Below are positions 5,069 through 28,757 of a stretch of DNA of 32,000 nt, piece by piece (within the stretch, counting starts at the first letter, position 1; each line of letters opens with the position of its first letter). Source of the stretch: Corynebacterium glutamicum ATCC 13032 (GTDB lineage Bacteria > Actinomycetota > Actinomycetes > Mycobacteriales > Mycobacteriaceae); the NCBI RefSeq assembly GCF_000011325.1, contig NC_003450.3:1770001-1802000 (forward strand). Reading direction: 5' to 3'. A program made the position numbers and the translations under genes. Below the pieces are notes generated by a model. That model searched no databases. It had not been told where the DNA came from and was given only the letters and a program-made list of their open reading frames with translations.

Positions 5069-5630
5069 ATTCAACCTCTCATAGATGGGCGAAACTTCCT
5101 TTTCGCCGTGGTCGGACGCATTAGTTTCATCTTTGCGCCCGGTTAGTTGTCGAAATCTTCCCCCACTTAGTTCCCCAGAGGGAAATATCAAGCGGAGGTT
5201 ACCAGTAGGTAAATAGAGTCTATCCAGCTTGGAGCCACTTTTCGAAGTCGTGTGATCTAGACTACGTTCCCATTCTGGGGGTGTCTTGCGCAGGTTTCGG
5301 GGTAGAACTCAAGGGCGGGAAGGCATTACCACATGCACCCATACACGAATAGAAAAAATGTGCGAATATTCACCACAAAAAGCGGATTTCCTGCTGGCTG
5401 TGGTGGATATTTCCGCTTTATCTGCCTGCGTGCGCAACTTTAGGACCGATTTCTAGAGTCCAGCCTGGTTTGTGGTGGATCCTTGCCCTGGAAGCTTTCA
5501 GGATTCACAACTGCCCCACCGGCCCCAAAAGTGAGGGCCCCTAAAATCGCGCCCAGCCGCCTGAATGACCTCAATCCATATATCGACCCATCTTGAGCAC
5601 TTCGACCCCTTAAAACACTTTTTGGGAAGC

Positions 5631-5669: not shown

Positions 5670-5675
5670 AAATTG

Positions 5676-5748
5676 AGCGGATGACGAGACTCGAACTCGC
5701 GACCCTCACCTTGGCAAGGTGATGCGCTACCAACTGCGCTACATCCGC
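5676..5748 (-). tRNA. tRNA-Gly (GCC)
   Basis: 73-nt cloverleaf read on the minus strand: acceptor GCGGATG/CATCCGC, anticodon loop TTGCCAA, T-loop TTCGAGT. No encoded CCA. Confidence 0.92.
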
Positions 5749-5781
5749 ATGAACATTGATTAAAGAGGTTGTTCGTCCTCT

Positions 5782-5856
5782 TGGTGCGCGATACTGGGAT
5801 TGAACCAGTGACCTCTTCCGTGTCAGGGAAGCGCTCTCCCGCTGAGCTAAACGCGC
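5782..5856 (-). tRNA. tRNA-Val (GAC)
   Basis: Acceptor GCGCGTT/ATCGCGC (with one G-T pair), anticodon loop CTGACAC, T-loop TTCAATC. CCA is encoded (tgg at 5782-5784). Confidence 0.92.
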
Positions 5857-5866
5857 CAGAACTGCG

Positions 5867-5937
5867 AGGTGGAAACGGGAATCGAACCCGTGTGCACGGT
5901 TTTGCAGACCGTTGCCTCACCACTCGGCCATTCCACC
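5867..5937 (-). tRNA. tRNA-Cys (GCA)
   Basis: 71 nt: acceptor GGTGGAA/TTCCACC, anticodon stem-loop ACGGT-CTGCAAA-ACCGT, T-loop TTCGATT. Confidence 0.9.
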
Positions 5938-5978
5938 ATGGCATAAATTTGCCTTTAGGTACGTGGTAAACATACCAG

Positions 5979-6051
5979 AGCGGATGACGAGACTCGAACT
6001 CGCGACCCTCACCTTGGCAAGGTGATGCGCTACCAACTGCGCTACATCCGC
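5979..6051 (-). tRNA. tRNA-Gly (GCC), copy 2
   Basis: Identical in sequence to 5676-5748. Confidence 0.92.
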
Positions 6052-6084
6052 ATGAACATTGATTAAAGAGGTTGTTCGTCCTCT

Positions 6085-6159
6085 TGGTGCGCGATACTGG
6101 GATTGAACCAGTGACCTCTTCCGTGTCAGGGAAGCGCTCTCCCGCTGAGCTAAACGCGC
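6085..6159 (-). tRNA. tRNA-Val (GAC), copy 2
   Basis: Identical in sequence to 5782-5856, including the encoded CCA. Confidence 0.92.
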
Positions 6160-6192
6160 GGGACATTTCATCGATTGGCCCGGTGAAATGAG

Positions 6193-6265
6193 AGCGGATG
6201 ACGAGACTCGAACTCGCGACCCTCACCTTGGCAAGGTGATGCGCTACCAACTGCGCTACATCCGC
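6193..6265 (-). tRNA. tRNA-Gly (GCC), copy 3
   Basis: Identical in sequence to 5676-5748. Confidence 0.92.
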
Positions 6266-6612
6266 ATGCACTACTTAGAACTTGTTCCTGCTTGTTCCGT
6301 TCTGTGCGGTGCTGGAATAACTTTAGACCGAACGCTCCCTCGAACACAAATCCCCAAGTCAATGCCACAAAAGCACAGGTAAAACCCCTAGTGAAAACCC
6401 ACTTTCCAAATCACACGGATGTTATTTCGCAGGACAGCAAAGAAAACCTCGAATATTTGACCAATGCTCATCGCTCCAGATTCAGAAACGTGGTGACATC
6501 CGATTTCCATCTATTAGGTACAAGAATTTCTCTTCCATATAGAAGCTGGGTGAAAAATTGAACCGATTATGAATATTCAAAACTTCCGTGTTAACTTCTA
6601 AGCACACCGCAA

Positions 6613-6684
6613 GGTCCTATGGCTCAGTGGAAGAGCGTTCCGTTCACACCGGAAAGGTCGCTGGTTCGAACCCAGCTAGGACCA
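6613..6684 (+). tRNA. tRNA-Val (CAC); probable integration target at the prophage edge
   Basis: 72 nt: acceptor GGTCCTA/TAGGACC, anticodon stem-loop TTCCG-TTCACAC-CGGAA, T-loop TTCGAAC. The character of the sequence changes immediately downstream. Confidence 0.92.
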
Positions 6685-6692
6685 CTTGTTTA

Positions 6693-8098: not shown

Positions 8099-9508
8099 TT
8101 ACTTGCGTGCTTTCGCTGCAATCGAGCGTGCCGCAATCATAAGTCCTTCGCGATTGAGCTTGCGCGAATATGCTGAATCCAAATACAGCACCGGGAACGT
8201 ATCTTCCGAACCCATCTCCGCTGCCTTAATCAGCAACGCTTCATGCAGTCGATCACGCAGCGGGCCGGAACCACCGCCGTAGACAAAGGCTACTTCGGTA
8301 AGAGCACCCACGTCGCTCAACACTCGTGCGAACTCTGCAGCCACATCCTGAACAAAGAACACTGCCTCCTGATCAACATGCTGTTCCACGCGGGTATAGA
8401 AATTCCGCTTGAGTGCACTCGGTGGTCGCTGCAAATAATCAGCCAACTGCTTACGCGAGTTAAAGTTGTGTGCCAACCCAGCATCGTCCATAGCCTGAAT
8501 CGCCGACTCCAAGACGGTGCCATAACCCTTGTCATAGGCGCGTGAAGCATCATGATTAAACCGCCCATCCGTAAAGACTGGGAAATTCACAGTACCTTCA
8601 CCCACATCCACACCGATTGTGTGGCGAGCTTGTAGCACATCACCTGCTGTCACGCCCTCTAGAGCAAGCCCTTTGGAGCGTACATCGGCGAGCATTCCGT
8701 TCATAAGTACTTCGCCACCTGCGGTAATGGCATACTGTGCCGATGCGCCCTCGGCAATGACCTCGACACGCTCAAAGATGAGCTGCACCGTTGCTGGGGT
8801 TTCAAAGTTGTTAACCGTCACCACATGCACAGCCGGGTTCGCTGCCCCATCACCCATAAACTGTGCCTTATACCCATGACGGTGACCCACATATTCATTA
8901 ATCGGTAACGCAAGTGCAAGATACGTATGCACACGCAGCACACCGGGATCACCCTCAACAGCAACCTGTGGGATTCGACCATGTGCTGCCACAAAGTCTT
9001 TCACAGCCTTGGCCGCAAGTACTGCCATGACCAGCACCTTGCTCAGTTCTTGTTCCGCCTTGGAGCGGTTACCCACCAGATCAAATTCCTCCAAGCTACC
9101 TCGTGCAGACAAGCTGCGCGTGCCACAAAGGTAACGATAATTACCTTTCACCATAGGCGAATTGAAATTGGTATCAATGTGGTTGAAGAAATCCGCACCG
9201 GTGACAGCAACAGCGGTGTCATCTGGTTCGGGAACTTCCGTTGGCCGGCTCATGCGCGTTGCTGCAGAGGGCATATCAATAACATCAACAGACGTGCCAG
9301 TCGTATCACCGGTTGCCTCGATAATGCCCTTGACATAACCGTTTCCAATATCGAGTCCAGCGGTATAGGTGTAGACACCGATATTCGAGCCTAAAGCAGA
9401 TCCGTGCTGGCCTGTCTGTACTGCATCTGTCGCAGAGTAATTCTTCGTATTAATGGGCTTAAGTACTTTCTGTGTGGTCTTCTTCTGCACATTCACAGCG
9501 CTGGTCAT
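8099..9508 (-). CDS. alpC: actin-like (ParM/Alp family) ATPase
   Basis: Actin-fold phosphate-1 GLDIGNGYVKG, phosphate-2 GVDVGEGTVNF and adenosine motif YGGGSG. GGGAAG RBS before ATG 9508. Sits downstream of a small adaptor gene and a repeat array, as in ParMRC-type systems. Confidence 0.9.
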   Translation of the reverse strand: MTSAVNVQKKTTQKVLKPINTKNYSATDAVQTGQHGSALGSNIGVYTYTAGLDIGNGYVKGIIEATGDTTGTSVDVIDMPSAATRMSRPTEVPEPDDTAVAVTGADFFNHIDTNFNSPMVKGNYRYLCGTRSLSARGSLEEFDLVGNRSKAEQELSKVLVMAVLAAKAVKDFVAAHGRIPQVAVEGDPGVLRVHTYLALALPINEYVGHRHGYKAQFMGDGAANPAVHVVTVNNFETPATVQLIFERVEVIAEGASAQYAITAGGEVLMNGMLADVRSKGLALEGVTAGDVLQARHTIGVDVGEGTVNFPVFTDGRFNHDASRAYDKGYGTVLESAIQAMDDAGLAHNFNSRKQLADYLQRPPSALKRNFYTRVEQHVDQEAVFFVQDVAAEFARVLSDVGALTEVAFVYGGGSGPLRDRLHEALLIKAAEMGSEDTFPVLYLDSAYSRKLNREGLMIAARSIAAKARK

Positions 9509-12890: not shown

Positions 12891-15473
12891 TTAGTCAATA
12901 GTACCTTCGGCATCTGCACCGGTCTCTGCACCGGCCTCAGCATCATCTGGGAATCCAAGATCATCACCTGGGACCGTGATGCAGTCATTGCCGGTACCAG
13001 GGTTGCCGCCACCGCCAAAGGTTGTCGAAATACCAGTGTCCTTTTCGCCGATCCACCAGTTTCCGTTCTCACCGATGTGCGGGGTGAGACCATCCTTACC
13101 GTCAGTTCCGTTAGTACCGTTGGTGCCATCTCGTCCATGTGGAATGGTCACAGTGGAATGGTCACTGAATCGAATAGTGGTGAAACCAGGAGTCTCTTCA
13201 GTACCTATAACAGTGAGGCCCGATGCATTCGGTAGAGAATATGCCATTGGTGAACCTGTAGCGTAGAACACAACAGCACTATGTGGTGGAAGGGTGTAAT
13301 CATATTCTTCACCATTGATCGTTGCAGTAATGGTCTTGGGTTCATCACTAGTGTTGAAGACCACATCAGTGACACCCGCTACCGCCTCACCAACGGGGGT
13401 CGGGCTTGCAGAGACACCTGTATCGGTATCACCGATCCACCAGTTACCGTTGTCGCCAATGTGTGGTGTGAGGCCATCCTCACCAGGTGTTCCAGTGCCA
13501 CCCTGAGCTGGGATACCAGTATCCTTTTCACCGATGTACCAGTTACCGTTGTCACCAATAACAGTGTGCGGGATTTCATATTCAAATTGATCAAGAATGA
13601 TGATGGTGGCCTGGCCACCACCTGGATAACTCGATTCTCGGATCTCAATGTCCACATTACCGGAACCCTCGCCCGGAGCGCCCGTGTCACCAGTGTCACC
13701 CTTATCGCCCTTTGGACCCTGCGCCTTGACACCGGTATTTTCACCATTGATGTACCAGTAGCCATTAATGATCTCAACGGTGTTAGCACCGTTGGTTCCA
13801 TTTTCACCGTCTTGTCCATCGGCTCCGTTGGTGCCATTTTCACCAACTGCCTTGACACCGGTATTTTCACCATTGATGTACCAGTAGCCATTAATGATCT
13901 CAACGGTGTTAGCACCATCGGCTCCGTTGGCGCCATCCTGACCACGAGCAGGAACGCCGGTATCAACGATGCCGATCCACCAATTACCATTATCACCGAT
14001 GCGTGGGGTGTCACCGTCTTTACCGTCATTGCCACGTGCAGCAGTACAGGTGTTGTTCTCACCGATCCACCAGTTACCATCTGGGCCGATGTACGGGGTC
14101 AGTCCGTCCTTACCGTCTTCGCCGGTATCTCCCTTGTCGCCCTTCTCACCCTTGTTGATGGTGATTTCAGTGCCGTTCGAGAACACCACAACAGTGTTGC
14201 CGTCCGCATCGAAACGGGTTTCGATGACCGTAATGGACTCGCCATCTGCGCCATTACTTCCATCTTCACCATCGGCGCCAGCGTCACCCTTATCACCCTT
14301 ATTAATGGTAATAACAGTGCCATCGGAGAGCTCAACAAGAGTGTTGCCTTCAGCATCGTTGCTGGTGTTAACAACAGTAATTGATTCACCATCTGCGCCG
14401 TCTTCGCCATCGGCGCCAGCGTCACCCTTGTCGCCCTTCTCACCCTTGTTGATGGTCACATTGGAGCCATCGGAGAATTCGACAACAGTGTTGCCGTCCG
14501 CATCAACATAAGAGTTCTCCACAGTGATGCTGACTCCATCAGCACCGTCAGAGCCGTCAGCACCGTCCTTACCATCGGTACCCTTCTTTACAATGATCGT
14601 GGAACCATCGGAAAGCTCAACAACGGTGTCTCCATCATCGTTGATGTAGGTATCAGTTACGGTAAGGTCCTTACCGTCTTCGCCGTCCTTGCCGTCTTCT
14701 CCATCTTTACCGTCTTCACCCTTGTCGATAACAATGGTGGAACCGTCAGAGAACTCAACAACAGTATTACCTTCATCGTCGCGGTAAGTATTAACAATGG
14801 TGATAGCAGCGCCGTCTTTACCATTGGTGATGGTGATTTCAGAACCATCGGAAAAGACAACAATGGTATTGCCGTCATCATCAGTCTTAATCTCAGTAAT
14901 GGTGATCGAGGTACCATCTTGACCATCAACACCATTTTCACCATCAGTGCCACTGGAGCCACCCGCGAAGTCGAAGCCTTCCAGCCAGCAGTAGTCAACC
15001 AGTGCGATCAGGCCGGCAGTACCAGCAACAGCGCCGATAGCAGGGCCTGCAGTCTGGCCCACCTGTGCCGCCAGGTCATTCCATCCAGCCATGGTTCGTG
15101 CTGCTTCAGTGAGATCAATACCCTGCACAGCGTTCTGCTGTGGGCCGTGCACGCCGTTACCGAGGCCAATGTTGAGCGATTCAAGAGAGTTGTTGAACTG
15201 ATTGCTGAGATCCTGCCCAATGCGCTGTGCGTCAGACTGAATCTGGGACACCATATGCTGGAATTCTGGCTGCTGAGACAGCAGACCAACACCCACTGCT
15301 GCGCCTGCAACAAGCGGTGCAGCAGCACAAATGGCATCACGGGTGGAATCGGAGTTGGTAGTGTCATCCGCAACATCCTGTGCAGATGCCGCAGGAACAA
15401 TAGACAGACCCAGACCAGCAACAGTCAGCGCGGTAATAGAACGCGCAGAATTCTTCTTCAAATTAAGAGACAA
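12891..15473 (-). CDS. secreted collagen-like / tail-fibre-like repeat protein (860 aa)
   Basis: TTG start with GAAAGG RBS and signal peptide ...SIVPAASAQD. Seven units of G-x-D-G collagen-like triplets plus sITVxNtxxDaxGNTVVEFSDGSxxTInKG. Five P(H/R/Y)IGxxGNWWIGxxDTG units. Two ANTVEIINGYWYINGENTGVKA units. Confidence 0.85.
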   Translation of the reverse strand: MSLNLKKNSARSITALTVAGLGLSIVPAASAQDVADDTTNSDSTRDAICAAAPLVAGAAVGVGLLSQQPEFQHMVSQIQSDAQRIGQDLSNQFNNSLESLNIGLGNGVHGPQQNAVQGIDLTEAARTMAGWNDLAAQVGQTAGPAIGAVAGTAGLIALVDYCWLEGFDFAGGSSGTDGENGVDGQDGTSITITEIKTDDDGNTIVVFSDGSEITITNGKDGAAITIVNTYRDDEGNTVVEFSDGSTIVIDKGEDGKDGEDGKDGEDGKDLTVTDTYINDDGDTVVELSDGSTIIVKKGTDGKDGADGSDGADGVSITVENSYVDADGNTVVEFSDGSNVTINKGEKGDKGDAGADGEDGADGESITVVNTSNDAEGNTLVELSDGTVITINKGDKGDAGADGEDGSNGADGESITVIETRFDADGNTVVVFSNGTEITINKGEKGDKGDTGEDGKDGLTPYIGPDGNWWIGENNTCTAARGNDGKDGDTPRIGDNGNWWIGIVDTGVPARGQDGANGADGANTVEIINGYWYINGENTGVKAVGENGTNGADGQDGENGTNGANTVEIINGYWYINGENTGVKAQGPKGDKGDTGDTGAPGEGSGNVDIEIRESSYPGGGQATIIILDQFEYEIPHTVIGDNGNWYIGEKDTGIPAQGGTGTPGEDGLTPHIGDNGNWWIGDTDTGVSASPTPVGEAVAGVTDVVFNTSDEPKTITATINGEEYDYTLPPHSAVVFYATGSPMAYSLPNASGLTVIGTEETPGFTTIRFSDHSTVTIPHGRDGTNGTNGTDGKDGLTPHIGENGNWWIGEKDTGISTTFGGGGNPGTGNDCITVPGDDLGFPDDAEAGAETGADAEGTID
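13723..13916. repeat. tandem duplication, 126-bp period, inside the 860-aa gene
   Basis: The 68 nt at 13723-13790 are identical to 13849-13916 (gccttgacaccggtattttcaccattgatgtaccagtagccattaatgatctcaacggtgttagcacc). Confidence 0.9.
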
Positions 15474-15728: not shown

Positions 15729-16844
15729 TTAACCTGCGTTAACAAGCTCAGGGTCTTCTTCTACTTCGAGATCTGCATCAGTTTCAGTGTCGATCACACT
15801 ATCGTCGTCACCATCAACCTTTTCACTCTGTTCAGATGATCCAAGCCCAGAAGAGCCAGTTGGCTTTTCTGCCGCCACGTCACCATCTGCGTTGTCATCG
15901 GCATCAATGTCGCCACAGAAATCATCAGCGAGCACCGACAGCACAGCAAGGCCGGTAGCACCAGAGATCAACAACCCTGCATCAATATCCTTGGTCGCGT
16001 TGTAGAGCCACTGATCAAACTGGGGGTTGAGGCTTGGAAGATTGAACTGTGCACGCACATCTTCAACAACACGTGGGATCGCCGGTGCCACAGCGTTAGC
16101 AATAGCACCTGCAGCAGGAATTGCTGCCAGCAGCAACATCTTCGGGTTCAGCAGACACTGTGCCAGCTCATCGGTGGCACCCTTAGCTGGCGCTGGGATA
16201 GTGACCTCAGAACCATCGGAGAACACAATGGTAATGGAACCATCGTCATTGGCAATCTGATCGACAATGGTCGCGTTAGCGCCGTTCTCACCATCCTTGC
16301 CATTTTCACCATCAGCACCATCCTGGCCGTCTGAGCCATCGTTGCCGTCCTTACCGTTAGCAACAACAAGCACAGAGCCATCAGAGAACGTAATGACGAT
16401 ATTGCCGTTGGCGTCAGTCGCAGTAGACACCACAGTAGCGTCCTCGCCATCCTTGCCATCTTCACCATCCACACCGTCCTTAGCTGCAGGAATGGTGACG
16501 ACGGTGCCATCAGAGAAGGTGAGCTTGACATCACCATTGGACTCCGTAGCGACATCAACAATGGTTGCGTCCTTGCCGATCACACCATCTTGGCCATCGG
16601 TACCATCCTTGCCATCAACACCCGCCTTGAGGGTGACAAAAGTGCCGTCGGTGAAGTGGAAGGTGATGTCACCAGTCACTGGATCAACAACGGTGCGATC
16701 AAGGTTGACAACGTGAATCGGGGTACCAGCACCTACCTGCTGAGCCGTAGCTGGTGCCGCACCAACAGCAGCAACACCAGAGACACCGACTGCAACAGCG
16801 ACAGCAATGGATGCAAGACGACGAGAATTAAGCTTCAAAGACAT
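15729..16844 (-). CDS. secreted collagen-like repeat protein (371 aa)
   Basis: Signal peptide ending AAPATAQQ and an N-terminus MSLKLN paralogous to the MSLNLK of the 860-aa protein. DGxDGxDG plus ATIVDvatesnGdvkLTFSDGTVVTIPA-type units. Hydrophobic Cys-bracketed module and an acidic tail. Confidence 0.85.
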   Translation of the reverse strand: MSLKLNSRRLASIAVAVAVGVSGVAAVGAAPATAQQVGAGTPIHVVNLDRTVVDPVTGDITFHFTDGTFVTLKAGVDGKDGTDGQDGVIGKDATIVDVATESNGDVKLTFSDGTVVTIPAAKDGVDGEDGKDGEDATVVSTATDANGNIVITFSDGSVLVVANGKDGNDGSDGQDGADGENGKDGENGANATIVDQIANDDGSITIVFSDGSEVTIPAPAKGATDELAQCLLNPKMLLLAAIPAAGAIANAVAPAIPRVVEDVRAQFNLPSLNPQFDQWLYNATKDIDAGLLISGATGLAVLSVLADDFCGDIDADDNADGDVAAEKPTGSSGLGSSEQSEKVDGDDDSVIDTETDADLEVEEDPELVNAG

Positions 16845-16903: not shown

Positions 16904-18829
16904 CTACTTACTGGAACTAATGACGGAGCCGCCACCAAGACCGAACAGATTAAACAGCGGGAGAAGCAAATCAAGCAGCTTGGACAGCCAGTTTGTCGGC
17001 GTTGGCTTCGTGGTGATCTGTGAACCGTCCTCGTAGGTAATGGTCACTGAGCCGTTGTCGTTGGTAACTCGGGACACCTCTACCAGACCTTTACCGTCTG
17101 ACCCGTCTACGCCATCTGTGCCATTGACTCCATCTTTGCCGTCCTTACCGTCTGACCCATCAACACCGTTGCGCACAGTGAACTCAGTACCGTCAGAAAG
17201 AACATAGGTGATGTTGCCGTCCTCATCAGGGGTAGCAGATTCCAGCGTTAGGCCAGTACCATCAAGCCCGTCAAGACCATCTTTGCCGTCTTGACCAGCA
17301 TCAAGAGTAAACGTAGTGCCATCGGACAAGGTGACAGTCACCGTGCCGTCAGCATTGTCAACAACATCAATGGCGACAACACCGTCTCGGCCGTCTGAGC
17401 CATCAGACCCATCGTCACCGTCCTTGCCGTCATCAACAGAGGGGAGGTTGCCATCGCCATCGGTGATGTTGGGGCCAAACAAGCCATCACCGGAAAGCAG
17501 ATCGTCTGCGTGGCGATGTTTGTAGAGCTCACCCTCAGTGAAATAGTTATCCCTAGTGAACGCCCCCGCTGGTTCACCAACAGAACCTTGCACCTTATGT
17601 TCGAAGGTTTTACCAGGGCTAAATGGCTCTAGTGCTTCAATACCAGTCCAACTAAAGGAAATATCCGAAGGAATATTCTTAAACGTCGCTGTTGCTGTGG
17701 TCTTATCCGCTGAATACACAACGGTTGGTTCCCACGCAGCTACGTCGTACTCGGGAAATGCGGCAACAAATTCGTCATATTCAAATGAATTTTTGTAAGA
17801 ATAGCTGATCCTCGTCGATGTTTCCTCTACCCGAGGAACTTCCGAGAAAACGTCGAAATCCTCAAATCCACCTCCGGAACGTTCGCGTAAAGTGGCTCCG
17901 TCTGCGGCTGTGAAATTAAGTATCACGTCGCGTGTGGTGGGTGTGGTATTGACAAGCGCACCCCGGAATCCAGCACCGTTGTTATTGCTAATGACAACAT
18001 TGGCGTGCCCGACCACGACGCCAAGTGGAGCTGCGTATGCTAATGCGCCCATATCAACAGCTGGTGGTTGATTAATCTTCCAGTCTTGTTCACTTCGGAA
18101 ATGCGACACGGTCTGCGTAGACTTAACCCACGTGTGCTGGACAGTACTGATAATCCACGGGTGTCCAGCAACGCCGTAGCGGACTACCTTGTTCTCAACC
18201 TGACCCTCAGTCTTACCCACAGTCCAGTCTTGAATTGGTCGCTCACCCGTCTGCTGGGCGCTACTCACCCACCCGTACAGTTCCATATCAAGAGCTGCGG
18301 TGCGAGAAGTAGTGCCAGCATCCGAACTAAAGTTTGTCAACGTACCGCGCGTACCACCGTTGCTCACCAAAAGATCTGCGACACGAATACCTGCATCATT
18401 GCGTACAGGGACGGTGCGATCGTTTGAATTGAAAAACCGAAGTCCATCGCCGGTGAGATTAAAGACGTACTCATCCTCGGCAGTTGCTGAATCCGGGATC
18501 GAAAACTCCATCTGCAATCGCAGTTCACCCTTGGTGATGTCTCCTAGAAGCTCTTCACGCTTGTCGTTGTCACTGATACCCAGCTCAACCGGGTCAGAAA
18601 ATGACAGCCCGTTCAACGTATAAGAAACACTGGTCACAATACTGTCCGGCAACGTCGCAGCAGACGCAGTTGCCATACCAAACTGTGCCACATGATCAGA
18701 TGTCGCCACTGCCACACCGCCAATCGCCACAGTGGTGGCGAGCGCCAACGCAATAGGACGAGCAATCCGAGATCCCAGTACAAACTGAGGACGAACCCCT
18801 ACCTCTCGACCCTGTTTATTAAAAGTCAT
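16904..18829 (-). CDS. secreted protein with a large N-terminal globular region and C-terminal collagen-like repeats (641 aa)
   Basis: GAAGGTGG RBS and signal/anchor ARPIALALATTVAIGGVAVA. About 440 aa are non-repetitive. These are followed by DGKDGDDGSDG plus VTVTLSDGTTFTLDAG-type units and a hydrophobic tail LLDLLLPLFNLFGLGGG. Confidence 0.85.
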   Translation of the reverse strand: MTFNKQGREVGVRPQFVLGSRIARPIALALATTVAIGGVAVATSDHVAQFGMATASAATLPDSIVTSVSYTLNGLSFSDPVELGISDNDKREELLGDITKGELRLQMEFSIPDSATAEDEYVFNLTGDGLRFFNSNDRTVPVRNDAGIRVADLLVSNGGTRGTLTNFSSDAGTTSRTAALDMELYGWVSSAQQTGERPIQDWTVGKTEGQVENKVVRYGVAGHPWIISTVQHTWVKSTQTVSHFRSEQDWKINQPPAVDMGALAYAAPLGVVVGHANVVISNNNGAGFRGALVNTTPTTRDVILNFTAADGATLRERSGGGFEDFDVFSEVPRVEETSTRISYSYKNSFEYDEFVAAFPEYDVAAWEPTVVYSADKTTATATFKNIPSDISFSWTGIEALEPFSPGKTFEHKVQGSVGEPAGAFTRDNYFTEGELYKHRHADDLLSGDGLFGPNITDGDGNLPSVDDGKDGDDGSDGSDGRDGVVAIDVVDNADGTVTVTLSDGTTFTLDAGQDGKDGLDGLDGTGLTLESATPDEDGNITYVLSDGTEFTVRNGVDGSDGKDGKDGVNGTDGVDGSDGKGLVEVSRVTNDNGSVTITYEDGSQITTKPTPTNWLSKLLDLLLPLFNLFGLGGGSVISSSK

Positions 18830-21841: not shown

Positions 21842-22441
21842 ATGCTTTCAATTTGCGCAAAAATTGGATATTCGACGACAATTGCAGAAGTGGAAATGAA
21901 CTTCCGAAAGGGACAAACATATGGTATTTGCGGTGAAAACGGATCTGGAAAATCGACACTTCTTCGCACCCTGTGCGGGGAAATCCATCCAATTGACGGG
22001 TATGCAACTATAGATGACCAAAGTGTCACCGAACCAAGTTCTATCGGTAAAATTATAAAGATTTCTACCCCCGAATTCTATCCCGATATTTCAATTGGAG
22101 AGCACTTTAAGATACTGACTAAAACCACAAAGGTGGACTATGATGACGCCATTAAACGCTGGAATCTGGAAAAACTCCTTGAGAAATCACCTAATCGAGT
22201 ATCGAGCGGGCAGCAACAACGCAGCTTTCTAGCTTTACAATTGGGGGTGAAATGCGATGTGATTGTCTTGGATGAGCCGGAGAGGCATTTAGATTCTTTC
22301 TGGATAAGAATCCTATCGGAGGAACTGAAAGACCGAGCCAAAAGTGGTACGACTGTGATTTTAGCCAGTCATTCACAAGAGATTCTTAAAGTTTGTGACG
22401 AGGTAATCTCACTCGAAAGATATTTAAATGCAAATAAATAA
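21842..22441 (+). CDS. ABC transporter ATP-binding protein
   Basis: Walker A GENGSGKST, signature VSSGQQQR, Walker B VIVLDEP and H-loop ASHS. Confidence 0.9.
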   Translation: MLSICAKIGYSTTIAEVEMNFRKGQTYGICGENGSGKSTLLRTLCGEIHPIDGYATIDDQSVTEPSSIGKIIKISTPEFYPDISIGEHFKILTKTTKVDYDDAIKRWNLEKLLEKSPNRVSSGQQQRSFLALQLGVKCDVIVLDEPERHLDSFWIRILSEELKDRAKSGTTVILASHSQEILKVCDEVISLERYLNANK

Positions 22442-23429
22442 AGTGATCAAATTTGCAATACTGTTGGCTGTTGTCTTAGGTATTTCGTTTTCAACGGTGT
22501 CGTGGGTTTTTGATCAATACAAATTGAATGCAAATGATTACTCCCCGATATCTTCATTTGTCTGGAATCTGATATTCATCATAGGTTTATCGACTCTAGT
22601 AGAAAAATTTCTACCGCTCCTATCAATCTCAAAACTAGAGTGGATATATCATGTGAGACCCTTAGGCCAATTGTCTTTTGGTCGGTTTAGCCCAATCTTG
22701 CAACTGAGTGTATTCGCTCTCTTTGGACTTCTTGTTGGTGCTGCGAATGGGCATTTTTGGATATGGCTCATGATCAGCCTCTTAGCTAGACTAGTCACAG
22801 GCCTTTTTAAGAGAAAATCAATTCCAAATCTTCTTTCTGCAGGTAGAAGAAAAATTTTGTCGGAAGCCAGCCTTAACGTTTTGGATTCTGCACTAGTCGC
22901 AGATAGCACAACAGTCGCTCATCTAAAATGGATAGACCGACCCCCCACCGGAAACTACCTCATACTCACTTTTAGAAGATTTTTAAGAAGACCCCATATC
23001 GCTTTGACAATGCTAGTGGTCATCTCTTTCACATTCTCTTTTTCCAATGTTTTTGGAAATTTTACCCCTTGCTTATTTTTCCTACTGTGGTCCATTTTAG
23101 GTGCCGATGTGGCGCGGTGCGCAGACTTCTCTAAGCTAAAAGGACCAAACCACCTTAAAGTCGTGACTCTTATTGTGCATGGGTTATTCGCGCTAGCGAT
23201 CATGCTAATAATCACAGGGACAATCCAAATGCTGCCCTACGGGATTTTAATACTGCCAAGCATTCTTTGGACAGGAATAGTCAGAAGTCGAGCGAGGAGA
23301 GTAGATCAAATCACCTATATAGACAGCGGCGTTATAGGCCCAATTTCCCCAGAAATCATCAAGTTCTATTTATCAGGTTTACTACCGACTGTAGTAGTGT
23401 CAATTATTATTGTTTCCCTACTAAATTAA
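22428..23429 (+). CDS. polytopic membrane protein, putative permease/immunity partner of the ABC ATPase
   Basis: Overlaps the ATPase gene by 14 nt. The translation shows at least 6 hydrophobic helices. Confidence 0.75.
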   Translation: MQINKVIKFAILLAVVLGISFSTVSWVFDQYKLNANDYSPISSFVWNLIFIIGLSTLVEKFLPLLSISKLEWIYHVRPLGQLSFGRFSPILQLSVFALFGLLVGAANGHFWIWLMISLLARLVTGLFKRKSIPNLLSAGRRKILSEASLNVLDSALVADSTTVAHLKWIDRPPTGNYLILTFRRFLRRPHIALTMLVVISFTFSFSNVFGNFTPCLFFLLWSILGADVARCADFSKLKGPNHLKVVTLIVHGLFALAIMLIITGTIQMLPYGILILPSILWTGIVRSRARRVDQITYIDSGVIGPISPEIIKFYLSGLLPTVVVSIIIVSLLN

Positions 23430-23547
23430 CCCCTAAAGGGGTAATCCACTACCAGTAATTTCTACTTTCAAATACAAATCCTTTGAGCCATGTTAATTTG
23501 ATGATGCCAATACATGGCAACCCCAACTCAAGACAGGAAAACCAAAA

Positions 23548-23703
23548 ATGGTTAATATCAATCGATACACATCTACTAACTCCATTGCATCAGACGCTGG
23601 GAAACCAGCAGACGGTCGCACCACACCAACTACTGTTTCTTCTGTAATTTGCACTGAAACTATCGCCTACACTGTCACTGCTACCATCACAATCGGTTGC
23701 TAG
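23548..23703 (+). CDS. RiPP precursor peptide (51 aa)
   Basis: Not in the ORF track. AGGAAA lies 7 nt before ATG 23548 and the gene ends in a double stop TAGTAG. Peptide: MVNINRYTSTNSIASDAGKPADGRTTPTTVSSVICTETIAYTVTATITIGC. The last 27 aa hold 10 Thr, 2 Ser and 2 Cys, and the final residue is Cys. It sits 10 nt upstream of the kinase gene. Confidence 0.7.
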   Translation: MVNINRYTSTNSIASDAGKPADGRTTPTTVSSVICTETIAYTVTATITIGC

Positions 23704-23713
23704 TAGGCTACAA

Positions 23714-24823
23714 ATGAACCGCCCCCTTCAAAGTCAAAATTTTTCAATAACCAGCGAATGGGCAAATGCCACGTTCAACGATATCGAAGACTCTTTGGAG
23801 GGGTCTTTTGACATCGAACCAGGCCAATACATTGGACGCGGAGAATACTTCGTAGCTACTTCTGGAACGGGTTCCAAAAAGTTTATCAAGGTGGTTTTGG
23901 GTGACGGTATCGATAGCGAACTAAATCGTCGCATCGAAGGTGAAATTCTTGCAAGTAGTCTCCATCTTCCATCCACAGACCTAATCTCTCCTGTCGTAAT
24001 TCAGTATGTGAAAGAGTCTTCTAATTTTCCCGGTGACTTCTACATCGTGTCCGACTTCAAAGACGACACAGAAACTTTAGAGCTATCTAAGGCTTCTCTA
24101 CCCCTCACTGACTTAGCCAAGATCGGAGCGTTTCTCTTTCGTTTGGAATCTGTAACAGTTCCCCCTCAAAATCCTGCAAGGCGAGCAATGGATGTTTTGG
24201 ATGGACTTTCTCTTCTTGCAAATAAAGGCAACATTGAAACAGGCGCACAATTAACAAAAGGAACTATACAAGCTCTTGAAATCATTAATCAAGAAGCGAC
24301 CAACATCGAGAATGCACTTGAAAAAGTAACTAAAGTAGGATCACGGAAGTTTTTCTCGCATGGAGATCTTAAATTTTCTCAGTTCTTAATTAATGGTGAA
24401 ACCGGAAAGATTTTCCTATGTGACTGGGAAGAATGCGGTAGTGCACATTTCGCAAATGACCTATGTTTTCTCGCAGGTGATTTGTTCTATAGCACAATTC
24501 GGGAACTGGTGGATACCAACATCAAAAACATTAAAGGCTCCTCGATCATTCAGGAAGCCTACGATAATGCAACGCTTGAGGCTGTATCAAAAGTAAATGC
24601 AATATTAACTGGCTATTCCTCAGAGAGGGGTTACTCTCTCACCTCGGACGAAAAACGAATCATTAGTATCAGAATCGGATTGGCTGGTCTATTTCGACTT
24701 TACACTGTGAGCGCTAAATCTAATGAGTTACGCCCGCGCGAATTAGCCTTAGCCTCCATCGGAATGCAAATTACTTTAGGTCAAGCACCCAATCTGGTGT
24801 TTACAGATAGCAAGGTGGTTTAA
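23714..24823 (+). CDS. APH/choline-kinase-fold phosphotransferase (Ser/Thr-peptide kinase candidate)
   Basis: Gly-rich loop plus Lys in IGRGEYFVATSGTGSKKFIKV. Catalytic loop FSHGDLKFSQFLIN and metal-binding CDWEECG. Confidence 0.8.
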   Translation: MNRPLQSQNFSITSEWANATFNDIEDSLEGSFDIEPGQYIGRGEYFVATSGTGSKKFIKVVLGDGIDSELNRRIEGEILASSLHLPSTDLISPVVIQYVKESSNFPGDFYIVSDFKDDTETLELSKASLPLTDLAKIGAFLFRLESVTVPPQNPARRAMDVLDGLSLLANKGNIETGAQLTKGTIQALEIINQEATNIENALEKVTKVGSRKFFSHGDLKFSQFLINGETGKIFLCDWEECGSAHFANDLCFLAGDLFYSTIRELVDTNIKNIKGSSIIQEAYDNATLEAVSKVNAILTGYSSERGYSLTSDEKRIISIRIGLAGLFRLYTVSAKSNELRPRELALASIGMQITLGQAPNLVFTDSKVV

Positions 24824-25624
24824 GTGAGGAATTTGCACGAAACGATAGACAAGATCAAAAACTCAATGGTCTTTTTAAATGATCAAACCTTTACGATACC
24901 ACCGTATACAGGGCATCCAGAAACAGAAAACGTCCATGTAACTTCGCTGGAAGCCAATTCGGTACTGGCTAGTTATATTTATTCTCAATATCATGCCCGA
25001 GCAACAGAAGTAATTCCTCTTACAACCAAGCTTGACATAGTTCGCTTTCTCAGAGCTGATCCATATCTCATGGGCCTTTCGGGAGATCCGAATCAAGAAC
25101 AAGCGATACCGAAAATGTCATTAGTCCGATCGCCTGGATTCGTCCACAGTTTTGGAAATCGTAAGTGGGTTCAACCAAAAAAATCAATAGGCAGAATTTA
25201 CATGTCCGCGAAAAACGCGGTAGAGCGAACCGAAATATTTTTAGCTACTTTACAAATCGCTGAGAATAGCAATCTAATATTTCAGGGGAAAACTAGTTGG
25301 AACACATCCCTCCTGCGGACTGATGATATTGTATTCTACTTTCCGTTGGAATCTCATTTCTCGGAAGCACAAAGGCTGATCAAAAAATTTTTACCCTTTC
25401 GATCAGATGACGGCTTAGTTGAATCATTCTTTACTTCCTATTTGGCACCAGGTGTGAGTAAAGCTGTTGAAGTCCCAACTGCTAAGAACAATGGGCTCAG
25501 TTTTGGTATGGAATGGTCCACCATTTGCGCCCAACTAATAATCGAAGAATTTTCAGGAAAATCCGTCACGATCGCAGAAAAACTATCCGAATGGGGTATT
25601 CCTCAGAAGGAGGCCCACGCATAA
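24824..25624 (+). CDS. HopA1-like phospho-Ser/Thr lyase candidate
   Basis: GTG start directly after the kinase stop. The segment GRIYMSAKNAVERTEIFLATLQ...FQGKT...LRTDDIVFYFP matches my recollection of the R-x-Y-x-N / K / R-x-D-x-x-V-x-Y pattern of HopA1-family proteins. This needs HMM confirmation. Confidence 0.55.
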   Translation: MRNLHETIDKIKNSMVFLNDQTFTIPPYTGHPETENVHVTSLEANSVLASYIYSQYHARATEVIPLTTKLDIVRFLRADPYLMGLSGDPNQEQAIPKMSLVRSPGFVHSFGNRKWVQPKKSIGRIYMSAKNAVERTEIFLATLQIAENSNLIFQGKTSWNTSLLRTDDIVFYFPLESHFSEAQRLIKKFLPFRSDDGLVESFFTSYLAPGVSKAVEVPTAKNNGLSFGMEWSTICAQLIIEEFSGKSVTIAEKLSEWGIPQKEAHA

Positions 25625-26184
25625 TGACCAAAGTTACGAATGTGTCTTGGTTAGTAACAGGTTCAATGTCGGCCCTATCAATACCGGGTCTAATTTTCTC
25701 ACTTCGCTCATCACATCCTAACCTTAATTTCACTCCCTATCTAACACAAAGCGCAAGTCGAATCGTCACTATGACCAGTATGGCCACGCTAAGTGGAGTG
25801 ACTCCTAGAAATAGTGACTGGGGGTCAGAACCAGAGGCTACACCCAGCCACATTCAAATCGAATCAGAGTCAGATGCATATCTGATTGCCCCAGCGACCC
25901 TTGATTTTCTAGCTCGCTTTGCGCGTTATGATTGTTCGACCCCTTTCTCCCTTGCTCTTCAATGTACGAAAAAGCCAATTCTCGTAGCACCGTCCTTGCC
26001 GCCTGGGGGGAAAGATTCAATAGCATATAAGTCACTAAGCATGGACCTCTTAAAGTGGGAGAATTTACGGTTATTGAGTCCTATCGAAACTAAAAGTGCT
26101 TCTTCCCCAAACGCATCGTCATCCGGCTTCGGATCTGCCACACGATTAATCGAATTCATGTTAGAAAACCTACAGGGTACTTAG
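25624..26184 (+). CDS. HFCD-family flavoprotein, EpiD/LanD-type peptidyl-cysteine decarboxylase
   Basis: The ATG overlaps the previous stop (TAATG). VSWLVTGSMSA (compare the EpiD N-terminal FMN loop), PYLTQSASRIV, the active-site His context PSHIQIE, and AYLIAPATLDFLARFA (compare ILVLPASANTINKIA). The PxMNxxMW motif is divergent (VAPSLPPGG). Confidence 0.8.
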   Translation: MTKVTNVSWLVTGSMSALSIPGLIFSLRSSHPNLNFTPYLTQSASRIVTMTSMATLSGVTPRNSDWGSEPEATPSHIQIESESDAYLIAPATLDFLARFARYDCSTPFSLALQCTKKPILVAPSLPPGGKDSIAYKSLSMDLLKWENLRLLSPIETKSASSPNASSSGFGSATRLIEFMLENLQGT

Positions 26185-26185
26185 A

Positions 26186-27052
26186 GTGAAAAAAGTTTTT
26201 CAAAATGAAATGCGCACAATTTGGCAAAGAGATTCGGCCAATGATCAAGAACCGTGGTCCGAGATCCGTCGGTACTCTCCTGCAAATGGAAAACTTCCTC
26301 GCTTACCCGAGCAACTTCCTCAAGAAAACAGTTCGATCTATTGGGGTCAATCGGAAGATTTCACATTTAAAATCGGCACTTTGATTGATGAATCATTCTG
26401 GAGTGGTATTAACAAAAAAGCAATCAGTATGACCGATGATGACAAGAGTAAGCTTATTTTGAACTACTCAGAGAAAGCTATTAGTGCTTTCTCTGAGTTC
26501 TCTACTAGCGCCCACTGTCGATATCTGCCGGTTTTTGCACAGTACATCCATCATCTACCAAGAGATCTTCGAGAATTAAAAGAACTCCTGTTGGATAGCC
26601 ATGTGCGCTGTGTATTTGAGGACGCTAACCTATCAGTCTCCTCAATATTCAAAGACATCCAGTCTTTTGAAGATTACTCTAAAAAGTCTCATCGAATAGT
26701 TCATGGTTGTTTTCGATTTAGAAATATAGGTTTCTCAGGCAATGGCAAACTGCTCGTAATCTCCGGGGATGATCTAATCTACGGGTCTGAAATATTTATA
26801 CAAGCTGCGATGCTGGCTGATCTATTTGAGCTAAGTTCCTCCAAAGTCGTTGCTGTAAACAAATCAATGTTCGTTATGTATCAAACCTTCACTCAAAACA
26901 AGGACAGTTTTTATGTAAATAAATTAAACAGATTTACCTTCCTCTACCTAATCTCCCACTATGTACAATTTCTTTTTACCTACAAAAAATCTTTTCCTAA
27001 GAGACTTCTCTCGGAGGCAACGCTACTGAGATTCAACGGGCCTGTCATTTAG
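26186..27052 (+). CDS. kinase-fold-like protein lacking the catalytic Asp (pseudokinase/scaffold candidate)
   Basis: The GTG start is separated from the HFCD stop codon by a single nucleotide. HGCFRFRNIGF...LLVISGDDLIYG aligns with the HGDxxxxN...D pattern, but with Cys in place of Asp. No clear Gly-rich loop. Confidence 0.55.
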   Translation: MKKVFQNEMRTIWQRDSANDQEPWSEIRRYSPANGKLPRLPEQLPQENSSIYWGQSEDFTFKIGTLIDESFWSGINKKAISMTDDDKSKLILNYSEKAISAFSEFSTSAHCRYLPVFAQYIHHLPRDLRELKELLLDSHVRCVFEDANLSVSSIFKDIQSFEDYSKKSHRIVHGCFRFRNIGFSGNGKLLVISGDDLIYGSEIFIQAAMLADLFELSSSKVVAVNKSMFVMYQTFTQNKDSFYVNKLNRFTFLYLISHYVQFLFTYKKSFPKRLLSEATLLRFNGPVI

Positions 27053-27181: not shown

Positions 27182-27772
27182 ATGTCTGAATACTTACCAC
27201 TCGCGCAACACGTGCTCTCCCAGCGCACGCAGCCGTGGCCAGAAGGGTCTTTTCATGTGCCACTGACAGGACACAGATCACAGTCTTTGCCCGGTGGCTA
27301 CGACAGCCATCCGTTTCAACATGGACTCTACCAACGCTAATACGGCATCATGGAGCGAGGCCTTAGCAAGCACAACCGCTTTGTGCTGCACTCGCATGGC
27401 ACTGGGCGCCGACACAGTGTCGGTGCAGATGCGGTGTGGGCGTACGTCATTACAGCGTTGAAGCAAGCTTATCTGGGTCGGTTCTCTTTTGTTGCTGAGG
27501 CACTACTGTTAACACAGCCAAACCAGTGGCCGGCTCACGCGCAACAACAATGGCAGCAACTGGTACTACAAGCCGATCATGCCAATCTCTACAGCGAGAT
27601 TTATCATCCCAGCGTGCTCATGAAGCGCAACACCGGCATAATTGCTGCTGCTGATCTCGTGCTTGCTGTGATTAACAAGAATGCCACCACCGGTGGCACG
27701 GCACACACTGTTCGGGAAGCAGAAACCATGAGAAAGCAGGTCTTTAGGATTCACCCAGCAGGTCTGGTCTAA
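27182..27772 (+). pseudogene. SLOG-superfamily (YpsA/DUF1273-like) gene interrupted by an in-frame TAA
   Basis: GAAGG RBS plus ATG 27182. The two ORFs 27140..27340 and 27350..27772 share one frame, separated by TAA at 27338-27340. Joined motifs: PLTGHRSQSLPGGYD, GADAVWA, LQADH, MKRNTGIIAAADLVLAV, TTGGTAHTV. Confidence 0.5.
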
Positions 27773-28019: not shown

Positions 28020-28757
28020 TTAGTTTGCGCTAAAATGAGCGCCATTGGTATCGACATCAACCTGTATCCAGGCCATATTTTGTATAGGGAATCCCTGGAA
28101 TAATAATGACAAAAGAGCACTCATGCGTACATTTCGATCACTAGTCTGCTCAAATGTTGGTGTTTCAAAACTCATTCCGATCCCAGTAACTGACGGATTG
28201 TAAAACTTCTGAATTTTCGCATCTTGTACTGTGTAATAGTAGTCAAAACGAAATGACATCGTAGCCAAAATAATAGTCTTTTGTGCCAAGCAATTAGTGT
28301 TAAAACGATGCCCTTGAGCAAAGAATTCCTCACAATCCCGAATAGAGCCAGGAACAATCGACCTCGGCTGGATCAGAGAATTATTTGCATCAATCGGGAC
28401 TTGAAGTGTAGAAACTACGACTGACCCATCAGCAAAACGCTCAATAGTACCTTTCCCCTGTTCATTTTCAAAGTCCTCAATGTCCACCGGATGTTTTTGT
28501 GGGTCGATTGAATCCCACAGTTCACCCTGTTCGAGTTTTCCTATTAATCTATTAACTTGCTCTTCAGGGACGTTGTATGACCGAAGGCCATCACGAACTT
28601 CATCAATTTGCTCAGCCGTGTAATCAATAGTTAATTGATCGGTAATGTGTATTGGATCGACACCCTCTATTGCCTCAGAAGGCGAGGCAAAAGTCAGTGT
28701 GGAAATTAAGACGCTCAATGCAATTACCGTAGTAGACGCTCTTATTGAAGTAAGCAC
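28020..28757 (-). CDS. secreted hypothetical protein (245 aa), low-GC
   Basis: Signal peptide MLTSIRASTTVIALSVLISTLTFASPSEA and an AT-rich upstream region at 28758-28990. I recognise no family. Confidence 0.75.
   Translation of the reverse strand: MLTSIRASTTVIALSVLISTLTFASPSEAIEGVDPIHITDQLTIDYTAEQIDEVRDGLRSYNVPEEQVNRLIGKLEQGELWDSIDPQKHPVDIEDFENEQGKGTIERFADGSVVVSTLQVPIDANNSLIQPRSIVPGSIRDCEEFFAQGHRFNTNCLAQKTIILATMSFRFDYYYTVQDAKIQKFYNPSVTGIGMSFETPTFEQTSDRNVRMSALLSLLFQGFPIQNMAWIQVDVDTNGAHFSAN

Follow-up and report, generated by a model that had tools for sequence, protein, structure and literature searches.

A low-GC operon in the CGP3 prophage region of Corynebacterium glutamicum that probably encodes a diverged, minimal class Va / kintamdin-like lanthipeptide pathway

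A stretch of 32,000 nucleotides of the Corynebacterium glutamicum ATCC 13032 genome (NC_003450.3, positions 1,770,001 to 1,802,000; called the window below, with positions counted from its first letter) contains seven genes, at 21842-27052, that very probably make up a self-contained class Va / kintamdin-like lanthipeptide pathway carried as low-GC cargo of the CGP3 prophage region. Class Va lanthipeptides are defined by the minimal set LanK, LanY, LanD and LanX, with the cyclase role of LanX proven in vitro for rosin (PMC12291118), and the same four-protein logic was shown for kintamdin by co-expression (PMC9415263). The pathway type is already known, and the operon is a diverged, minimal, mobile-element-borne form of it with a pseudokinase cyclase as its predicted fourth enzyme. 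An earlier note on this DNA had proposed an undescribed system for a peptide that is synthesized ribosomally and modified post-translationally (RiPP), built on a kinase, a HopA1-like lyase and a homo-oligomeric flavin-containing Cys decarboxylase (HFCD). The enzymatic logic is borne out by the searches described below; the claim of novelty is not, since LanK, LanY, LanD and LanX are a published set. The seven genes and their predicted products are as follows (cg numbers were mapped by annotation names and gene order, not by sequence).

21842-22441, + strand: ATP-binding cassette (ABC) ATP-binding protein, 199 aa; cg1903 by position only.
22428-23429, + strand: membrane protein / ABC permease, 333 aa, overlapping the ATPase gene by 14 nt; cg1904.
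23548-23703, + strand: candidate precursor peptide, 51 aa; predicted leader, residues 1-24, at 23548-23619 and predicted core, residues 25-51, at 23620-23700.
23714-24823, + strand: predicted LanK, a Ser/Thr kinase of the aminoglycoside phosphotransferase (APH) type, 369 aa; cg1905.
24824-25624, + strand: predicted LanY, a HopA1-type phospho-Ser/Thr lyase, 266 aa, with a GTG start flush with the preceding stop; cg1906.
25624-26184, + strand: predicted LanD, an HFCD flavoprotein, 186 aa, with an ATG start in a TAATG overlap; cg1907.
26186-27052, + strand: putative LanX/KinH-like pseudokinase, 288 aa, with a GTG start after a 1-nt gap from LanD; cg1908 by position only.

An open reading frame (ORF) check recovered all seven co-directional, tightly coupled genes on the + strand where the earlier note had placed them, and the motifs that it quoted are all present. 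Its description of a low-GC block also agrees with the composition: G+C content is 0.39-0.46 and third-codon-position G+C (GC3) is 0.38-0.40 across the seven genes, compared with a GC3 of 0.49-0.62 in the adjoining prophage and host genes. Shine-Dalgarno-like sequences are AGGAAA ahead of the peptide gene, AAGGTGG ahead of the 266-aa gene and GAAGGAGG ahead of the 186-aa gene, and alignment of the N-termini of homologues backs the ATG start at 25624 and the GTG start at 26186. The seven products are exact matches to C. glutamicum proteins, including the ATCC 13032 entries BAB99080-86 and CAF20073-75. Public start calls conflict (25513-26184, 26186/26210), with deposited lengths of 172, 186, 197 or 223 aa for the flavoprotein and of 280 or 288 aa for the pseudokinase; in the ATCC 13032 entry BAB99084.1 the HopA1 gene is just 140 aa. 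A scan for promoters and terminators was uninformative, returning fewer sites than in shuffled sequence.

The 51-aa gene encodes the candidate precursor, which ends in Cys. Taking the leader to end after Gly-Arg, a predicted cleavage site, gives a core of 27 residues, TTPTTVSSVICTETIAYTVTATITIGC, that carries S7, S8, C11, T22 and C27 together with T1, T2, T4 and T5. Orthologues lie directly 5′ of the kinase gene in every related locus (five other lineages), with RYTS, SIA.D, GRTTPTT.SS..C, YT.T.T and the terminal GC invariant. The core is 67-89% identical across these lineages compared with 33-59% for the enzymes, so the peptide is better conserved than the proteins predicted to modify it. Shared gene order that includes the 51-aa peptide, at this level of enzyme identity and in five other lineages, is in our judgement more than chance. 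Only one named database entry annotates the 51-aa precursor.

The precursor of kintamdin, KinA, has the signature S-S/T-X-X-C-Xn-T-X4-C, corresponding to S7-S8-C11-T22-C27, and a Thr-rich N-terminus (PMC9415263). All five Corynebacterium-type precursors keep these signature residues without change, and 11 of the 27 core positions, V19-T20-A21-T22 among them, are identical to kintamdin, whose core was rebuilt for this comparison from its authors' nuclear magnetic resonance (NMR) fragments. The signature also fits a Streptomyces precursor annotated as LxmA family (Strep_A2), and thus it does not separate kintamdin-like from class Va peptides. Among the KinA BLASTP homologues in the kintamdin supplement are a C. 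timonense peptide (WP_155860843.1, 44% identity) and peptides of Microbispora rosea, the organism that makes rosin (PMC9415263). Because M. rosea peptides stand among the KinA homologues and an LxmA-family precursor fits the signature, we treat KinA-like and class Va precursors as one family; the Thr-x4-Cys spacing of the core is that of the aminovinyl-methylcysteine (AviMeCys) ring of rosin. We equate WP_155860843.1 with the peptide of loci L004/L005, which we take to be C. timonense by their accession LT629765; the core of this orthologue is 70% identical to the C. glutamicum core. Canonical precursors are labelled 'LxmA leader domain family RiPP' by the Prokaryotic Genome Annotation Pipeline (PGAP), and by eye the leader here has just a loose Y-T-x-x-x-[E/S]-[F/L/I] resemblance to the LxmA type. 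As the enzymes are what define class Va, the type of leader does not determine membership.

For three of the four enzymes the profile and structure-database matches agree with conserved residues. The 369-aa protein matches the LxmK family (NF038156, E 2e-20, model positions 22-336 of 347, below the curated cutoff) and, in the PDB, the LxmK kinase of the LxmK-LxmY complex (9dk1_A, E 1e-4), whereas its match to the APH Pfam family is weak (PF01636, 21.7 bits vs 23.2). It is 25-28% identical to lxmK-annotated genes of Streptomyces and Nonomuraea plasmids. R42, K59, D218, Q223 and D237 are invariant when Corynebacterium, Arthrobacter, Streptomyces and Nonomuraea sequences are aligned, and their counterparts in LxmK are Arg49, Lys66, Asp221, Gln226 and Asp241 (PMC12291118). 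We assign this protein as a predicted LanK kinase with intact catalytic residues. The 266-aa protein matches HopA1 (PF17914) at 35 bits, above the gathering score of 22.7, and the LxmY lyase (PDB 9dk1_B, E 1e-5), which places it in the lyase family proposed by the earlier note. Its H57, R124, K156, R165 and Y172 are invariant from Corynebacterium to Streptomyces and have the spacing of His57, Arg187, Lys219, Arg229 and Tyr236 of CaoY, residues implicated there by mutagenesis or modelling. We assign it as a predicted HopA1-type LanY lyase.

The 186-aa protein belongs to the flavoprotein family PF02441 (E 3e-10). Its best NCBIfam match is the CypD-family RiPP decarboxylase (E 2.7e-16, 59.4 bits), its best PDB match is CypD (6jdd, E 9e-11), and the flavoproteins of two lxmK clusters share 37% identity with it (E 1e-29 to 1e-33). 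The active-site His76 and the PA..F motif are conserved. These results support its assignment as a probable LanD/CypD-type peptidyl-cysteine oxidative decarboxylase. The gene had been singled out as one easily read as a CoaBC-like enzyme, and it is indeed annotated that way in public records. We rejected a CoaC/CoaBC housekeeping function because the protein is a single domain without a CoaB part, because its scores lie far under the cutoffs (CoaBC, 52.7 bits vs 219.7; coaC_strep, 21 bits vs 261) and because its nearest relatives are RiPP decarboxylases.

Database names such as 'phosphopantothenoylcysteine synthetase/decarboxylase', 'aminoglycoside phosphotransferase domain-containing protein' and 'T3SS effector HopA1 family' could suggest that the operon is an assembly of chance neighbours, namely a CoaC-like decarboxylase, aminoglycoside-type phosphotransferases, an effector-like protein and a drug-efflux ABC pump, with the 51-aa ORF spurious. 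It also fits that reading that CoaBC nearly equals CypD in NCBIfam score. We nevertheless consider it extremely improbable, because the whole set, including the Cys-terminal 51-aa peptide, occurs in the same order in five other lineages and its genes are translationally coupled, because the decarboxylase resembles lxmK-cluster flavoproteins and has no CoaB domain, and because the kinase and lyase match the LxmK-LxmY complex specifically.

The 288-aa protein is best read as a diverged LanX/KinH-type Avi(Me)Cys cyclase and not as a second kinase. It has no match in Pfam, NCBIfam or the PDB as a single sequence or as a profile, its profile shows no significant similarity to the cluster's own kinase family, and an exhaustive HMMER search of 1.84 billion representative proteins recovered relatives in only seven representative clusters. 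An AlphaFold2 model from an alignment of eight sequences reached a predicted local distance difference test score (pLDDT) of 92 and a predicted template modelling score (pTM) of 0.91; we took this model, since a two-sequence alignment gave a pLDDT of 39 and was unusable. In a fold search, the top 50 matches listed for the model are all kinase or phosphotransferase-type entries, including methylthioribose (MTR) kinase, PsiK, APH enzymes, choline kinase, LxmK (9dk3_A) and TvaE (8jsu_D). The earlier description of this protein as kinase-like therefore holds for the modelled fold but probably not for the activity: the family has an invariant H-G-C in place of the kinase H-G-D, so that the catalytic Asp is lost, and there is no conserved beta3 Lys.

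Gene position points in the same direction. In canonical clusters, which we obtained by tblastn of plasmids, a 312-327-aa 'hypothetical protein' is encoded directly 3′ of the flavoprotein gene, and the 288-aa gene occupies that position here. A profile comparison of the 288-aa family with three canonical or bridging LanX sequences, including an Arthrobacter intermediate, gave a weak E of 1e-3 in hhalign. The alignment, which MAFFT reproduces, pairs HGC with HGA, ADLFEL with GELLEL and SHYVQF with THAHDF, and so places H258 against the THAxD histidine and D212/E215 against the conserved acidic pair (mapped to RosX numbering by motif spacing). In vitro, RosX acts as an AviMeCys cyclase with a kinase fold but without the kinase residues, and it binds tightly to RosD (PMC12291118); KinH and TvaE play the same role. 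Our reading thus combines the kinase fold, the loss of catalytic residues and the position after LanD, which are observed in the model and the sequence, with the role of RosX, KinH and TvaE, from which a cyclase function is inferred.

Several findings argue against the assignment as LanX. The fold-search template modelling scores (TM-scores) fall in a modest range (0.46-0.59) and fail to tell LanX from genuine kinases, the hhalign probability with canonical LanX is just 22%, and BLASTP matched the protein to no Streptomyces or Nonomuraea LanX. Of the RosX triad Glu220/His269/Asp272, the position of Asp272 is Gln in the 288-aa protein. The family also keeps Asn180 and Asp195/196, positions that chelate Mg in kinases, and some nucleotide-dependent role may therefore have been retained.

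The full seven-gene arrangement was found in C. diphtheriae FRC0421 (L003, 6842-12557) and in one Logan contig. The C. diphtheriae cluster adjoins weak Abi_2-like, VbhA-like and ParA-like genes and an integrase gene cut by the end of the locus, which suggests that C. diphtheriae, a pathogen, carries this RiPP module on a different mobile element. Two Corynebacterium genomes carry the LanK-LanY-LanD-LanX core and the precursor beside gidB-parAB with flanking insertion sequence elements, and the cluster also occurs in Corynebacterium sp. KPL2850 and in a further Logan contig (47-59% enzyme identity). The G+C content of the module lies below that of its surroundings in each host (0.46 vs 0.51, 0.50 vs 0.70 and 0.45 vs 0.59). 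With LanX, LanK and an alignment of LanY as queries, word-indexed homology searches yielded close relatives of the Corynebacterium type only, of which several lay on metagenome contigs. No relative was confirmed in IMG/VR or in species-representative genomes, where a single pattern match failed confirmation, possibly because the source region was masked, and none of the GenBank phage records carries the lyase family. The operon family is rare and mobile and, among named records, was seen only in Corynebacterium.

The closest relative found outside Corynebacterium lies on the Arthrobacter sp. zg-Y820 plasmid NZ_CP126248.1 (L010, 2552-8591). This locus encodes a 55-aa precursor ending in Cys, 344- and 374-aa hypothetical proteins, a kinase, a HopA1 lyase and a 318-aa LanX-like protein with a YHYVQF motif; no flavoprotein gene was found downstream or across the plasmid origin.

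A pathway can be proposed in which every step is inferred from homology. The 51-aa precursor would be translated and its leader (about residues 1-24, RYTSxxSIAxD) would recruit the enzymes. LanK would phosphorylate Ser and Thr residues of the core and LanY would eliminate the phosphate, giving up to 12 dehydroalanine (Dha) or dehydrobutyrine (Dhb) residues, while LanD would oxidatively decarboxylate Cys27 to an enethiol. LanX, together with LanD, would then steer the enethiol onto Dhb22 to form a six-residue AviMeCys ring, and Cys11 would add to Dha7 to form a lanthionine as in rosin. Because the cluster encodes no protease, we propose that a host protease would remove the leader, after which the ABC ATPase/permease pair may export the product, protect the producer or both. 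The calculated mass of the unmodified core (T25-C51) is 2746.3656 Da; twelve dehydrations together with oxidative decarboxylation would bring it to 2484.2334 Da ([M+3H]3+ 829.0851), or to 2485.2174 Da should an N-terminal Dhb hydrolyse to 2-oxobutyryl.

For residues 7 and 11, we give the rosin-like lanthionine roughly an even chance, and we consider it more likely than the arrangement found in kintamdin. In the kintamdin (beta-bithionin) topology, Ser7 would become a beta-enamino acid (Aaa), and Cys11, Dhb22 and decarboxylated Cys27 would form one bis-thioether MAbi ring. The core has the length of kintamdin, the same S7-S8-C11-T22-C27, a Thr-rich N-terminus and the 11 identical positions, and the operon enzymes, like KinC, KinD and KinH, are isolated in sequence from the Lxm, Cao and Tva enzymes. 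However, the rosin precursors of M. rosea are themselves KinA homologues with the same Ser-x3-Cys and Thr-x4-Cys elements, yet they yield lanthionine and AviMeCys as established by NMR and in vitro reconstitution, and we therefore regard the kintamdin topology as a tentative, less probable outcome. The two topologies are isobaric, and thus sequence cannot decide between them.

The proposal of a self-contained pathway has to be set against a number of opposing observations. None of the seven genes encodes a protease, reductase or methyltransferase. Nor did any peptidase turn up among them, in their immediate flanks or in the clusters of C. diphtheriae and L007; kin-like clusters, by contrast, reportedly include a pair of metallopeptidase genes, kinE and kinF, in every case (PMC9415263). 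The KinE/KinF metallopeptidases, the KinJ reductase and the KinO methyltransferase have no counterpart in the operon. The scores of LanK and LanD are well below the NCBIfam curated cutoffs, and the precursor matched no NCBIfam family at E<=1, so that a match to an LxmA-type leader was not obtained. Published antiSMASH, BAGEL4 and PRISM runs on ATCC 13032 list only terpene, non-alpha poly-amino acid (NAPAA), type I polyketide synthase (T1PKS) or nonribosomal peptide (NRP) clusters and no RiPP. The literature searched, mostly outside subscription journals, describes neither the C. glutamicum cluster nor its product and includes no paper joining Corynebacterium and HopA1 in a RiPP context. The earlier statement that no product was known stands to that extent, but the peptide family itself is known, as the C. 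timonense homologue in the KinA table indicates (PMC9415263). Finally, the xenogeneic silencer CgpS binds CGP3, considered as a whole, along its length.

One explanation that would accommodate several of these points is that the operon, although it looks intact, is a functionally silent cryptic-prophage relic, which, through xenogeneic silencing and for want of a dedicated protease, yields no mature peptide in C. glutamicum. Consistent with this idea, CGP3 is a CgpS-silenced cryptic prophage, the cluster lacks a protease, no antimicrobial product of ATCC 13032 was found in the literature searched, and the absence of confirmed relatives in species-representative genomes marks the cluster as sporadic and dispensable. 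On the other hand, all seven ORFs are intact, the catalytic residues are conserved, and the peptide is conserved more strongly than the enzymes across species. Published data also show that cg1905 and cg1906, marked as one operon, change in parallel at the mRNA level (-1.33 and -1.17 at pH 6), that cg1904 mRNA is up at pH 9, that cg1907 is up on sigA overexpression, and that peptides of cg1904, cg1905 and cg1906 are present in envelope or membrane fractions of wild-type cells. These transcript changes and detected peptides indicate that the operon is not fully silent, and we consider a silent relic unlikely.

We also considered a joint reading in which the Corynebacterium clade is a distinct Avi(Me)Cys branch and its product serves the prophage rather than the host; taken as a whole it seems to us quite improbable. 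In its first part, a pseudokinase with the invariant HGC Cys and the Asn and Asp ligands might carry out a cyclisation chemistry unlike that of RosX or KinH. In its second part, which draws on the presence of the same module on mobile elements in C. diphtheriae and Corynebacterium sp. KPL2850, the product may kill cells that lose CGP3, exclude other phages or compete with skin or mucosa corynebacteria.

The operon begins with its own ABC pair, as the earlier note had described. The 199-aa ATPase belongs to ABC_tran (PF00005, E 5e-23). Its best NCBIfam match, 'lantibiotic protection ABC', scores 89 bits, far below the cutoff of 310, and on this ground we call the protein a generic ABC ATPase, with a probable role as an exporter/immunity ATPase. 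The ATPases that occupy the corresponding position in the C. diphtheriae and L007 clusters share 50% identity with it. The 333-aa membrane protein has no Pfam or NCBIfam family, contains several hydrophobic segments and shares 36% identity with its positional counterpart in L003 and L007; six transmembrane helices have been predicted for cg1904 (PMC2807442). A perfect short hairpin, CCCCTAAAGGGG, lies at 23430-23441 directly 3′ of the stop codon of the permease gene, within the 118 nt that separate this gene from the precursor gene. It has no T-run and so is not a classic terminator; a role in processing or attenuation, and thereby in setting the ratio of precursor to transporter, is conceivable.

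The assignment of the operon to prophage cargo agrees with its surroundings. Host genes occupy the left end of the window (a Dyp-type peroxidase at 2655-3863 and CopC at 4454-5191), followed at 5675-6685 by an array of seven transfer RNA (tRNA) genes (Gly-GCC x3, Val-GAC x2, Cys-GCA and Val-CAC). Beyond the array lie phage-type genes, with a match to a partition-protein PHROG at 8099-9508, and the array between these and the host genes probably marks the left attachment region of the prophage. Published names in the region are CopC for cg1884, ABC permease for cg1904, 'putative protein kinase' for cg1905, 'putative protein phosphatase' for cg1906 and 'putative phosphopantothenoylcysteine synthetase/decarboxylase' for cg1907. 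Accordingly, the suggestion that the operon might be cg1903-cg1908 fits cg1904-cg1907 by annotation name, and cg1903 and cg1908 by position only. The paper on CgpS names cg1890/91 (alpAC) and cg2071 (integrase) among the genes spread over CGP3, which puts cg1903-cg1908 within it.

Other ORFs in this part of the window fall outside the proposed pathway. On the - strand, three large paralogous ORFs (12891-15473, 15729-16844 and 16904-18829) share the PHROGs phrog_28074, 29134 and 1806, with collagen-like or tail-fibre matches and multiple repeated stretches, and are suggestive of a tandem family, within the cryptic prophage, whose members are rich in repeats and tail-fibre-like. Just 3′ of the operon, in normal-GC DNA outside the low-GC module, a 140-aa ORF on the + strand (27350-27772) has a sub-threshold YpsA/SLOG match (24.7 bits, cutoff 27.7) and a weak PADLOC match to ShosA (E 0.002), and it might be defence-related. 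A second low-GC ORF follows on the - strand at 28020-28757 (245 aa, GC 0.42, GC3 0.36). Its N-terminus is hydrophobic and resembles a signal peptide, Pfam, PHROGs and PADLOC place it in no family, and it could be a separately acquired secreted protein. PADLOC assigned no defence system to the kinase, lyase, decarboxylase or pseudokinase, and its matches to the ABC ATPase reflect generic P-loop similarity.

C. glutamicum ATCC 13032 is among the most studied and most easily engineered bacteria and finds use as an indicator strain for bacteriocins as well as a production host. A minimal four-enzyme system without reductase, methyltransferase or protease could lend itself to work on Avi(Me)Cys cyclisation and on the question of lanthionine plus AviMeCys versus MAbi. 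The operon reveals no new kind of chemistry. It illustrates that diverged class V clusters can escape the genome-mining rules now in use, and it adds a candidate function to the cargo of CGP3 and to the mobile elements of C. diphtheriae and other Corynebacterium.

Sublancin is borne on the Bacillus SPbeta prophage. With this system, and with class I lanthipeptide clusters in Streptomyces prophages, the operon has in common a RiPP and its own transporter carried as prophage cargo, although the chemical class differs. The concept of the prophage-borne cluster is treated in PMC10023795, which cites Dragos 2021 and reports an antiSMASH survey of actinobacterial prophages with clusters in 13 of 2112 genomes and none reported in CGP3.

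Comparison with the thioamitides shows a shared kinase and HopA1 lyase (the TvaC/TvaD dehydratase) and a shared inactive kinase homologue and HFCD protein (the TvaE/TvaF AviCys synthetase). In contrast, the operon has no YcaO/TfuA pair or other thioamitide tailoring gene, and its precursor is unrelated to TvaA-type cores. Thioamitide and linaridin readings were both rejected, since their defining genes or domains are absent. In keeping with the earlier note, profile searches found no LanB, LanC, LanM, LanKC, YcaO, radical-SAM, methyltransferase or protease among the seven genes.

Kintamdin (kin, Streptomyces sp. RK44; PMC9415263) has in common with the operon the 27-residue core with S7-S8-C11-T22-C27 and the Thr-rich N-terminus described above. 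Its kinase, HopA1 lyase, inactive kinase homologue and HFCD flavoprotein have predicted functional equivalents here, the Kin enzymes having been compared by description. The Kin proteins are isolated in sequence from the Lxm and Tva enzymes, as are those of the operon. Unlike kintamdin, the operon core lacks Ser at 13, 16 and 18, and thus no D-Ala is expected. The kintamdin study describes no Corynebacterium cluster.

The class Va clusters of lexapeptide (lxm), cacaoidin (cao) and rosin (ros) share with the operon the four-enzyme set, LanX after LanD and an ABC transporter; LanB, LanC, LanM and LanKC are absent here too, and the catalytic residues of LanK and LanY are kept. The operon enzymes are strongly diverged from these systems, with 25-28% identity for LanK, about 26% for LanY and none detectable by BLASTP for LanX, and genes for an F420H2 reductase (LanJ), an N-methyltransferase and an M16/prolyl peptidase are missing. 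Canonical leaders have a conserved Glu-12 where the operon leader has Ser, and canonical LanX has HGA without Mg ligands whereas the LanX candidate here has HGC with Asn and Asp kept. The hosts of class Va clusters are Streptomyces-type actinomycetes, whereas the operon is a low-GC module in Corynebacterium mobile elements, and a table of 151 methyltransferase-less class Va clusters includes no Corynebacterium (PMC12291118). In rosin, Lan(6-10) arises from Ser6-Cys10 and AviMeCys(20-25) from Thr20-Cys25, and the core encoded by the C. glutamicum operon likewise has Ser-x3-Cys and Thr-x4-Cys.

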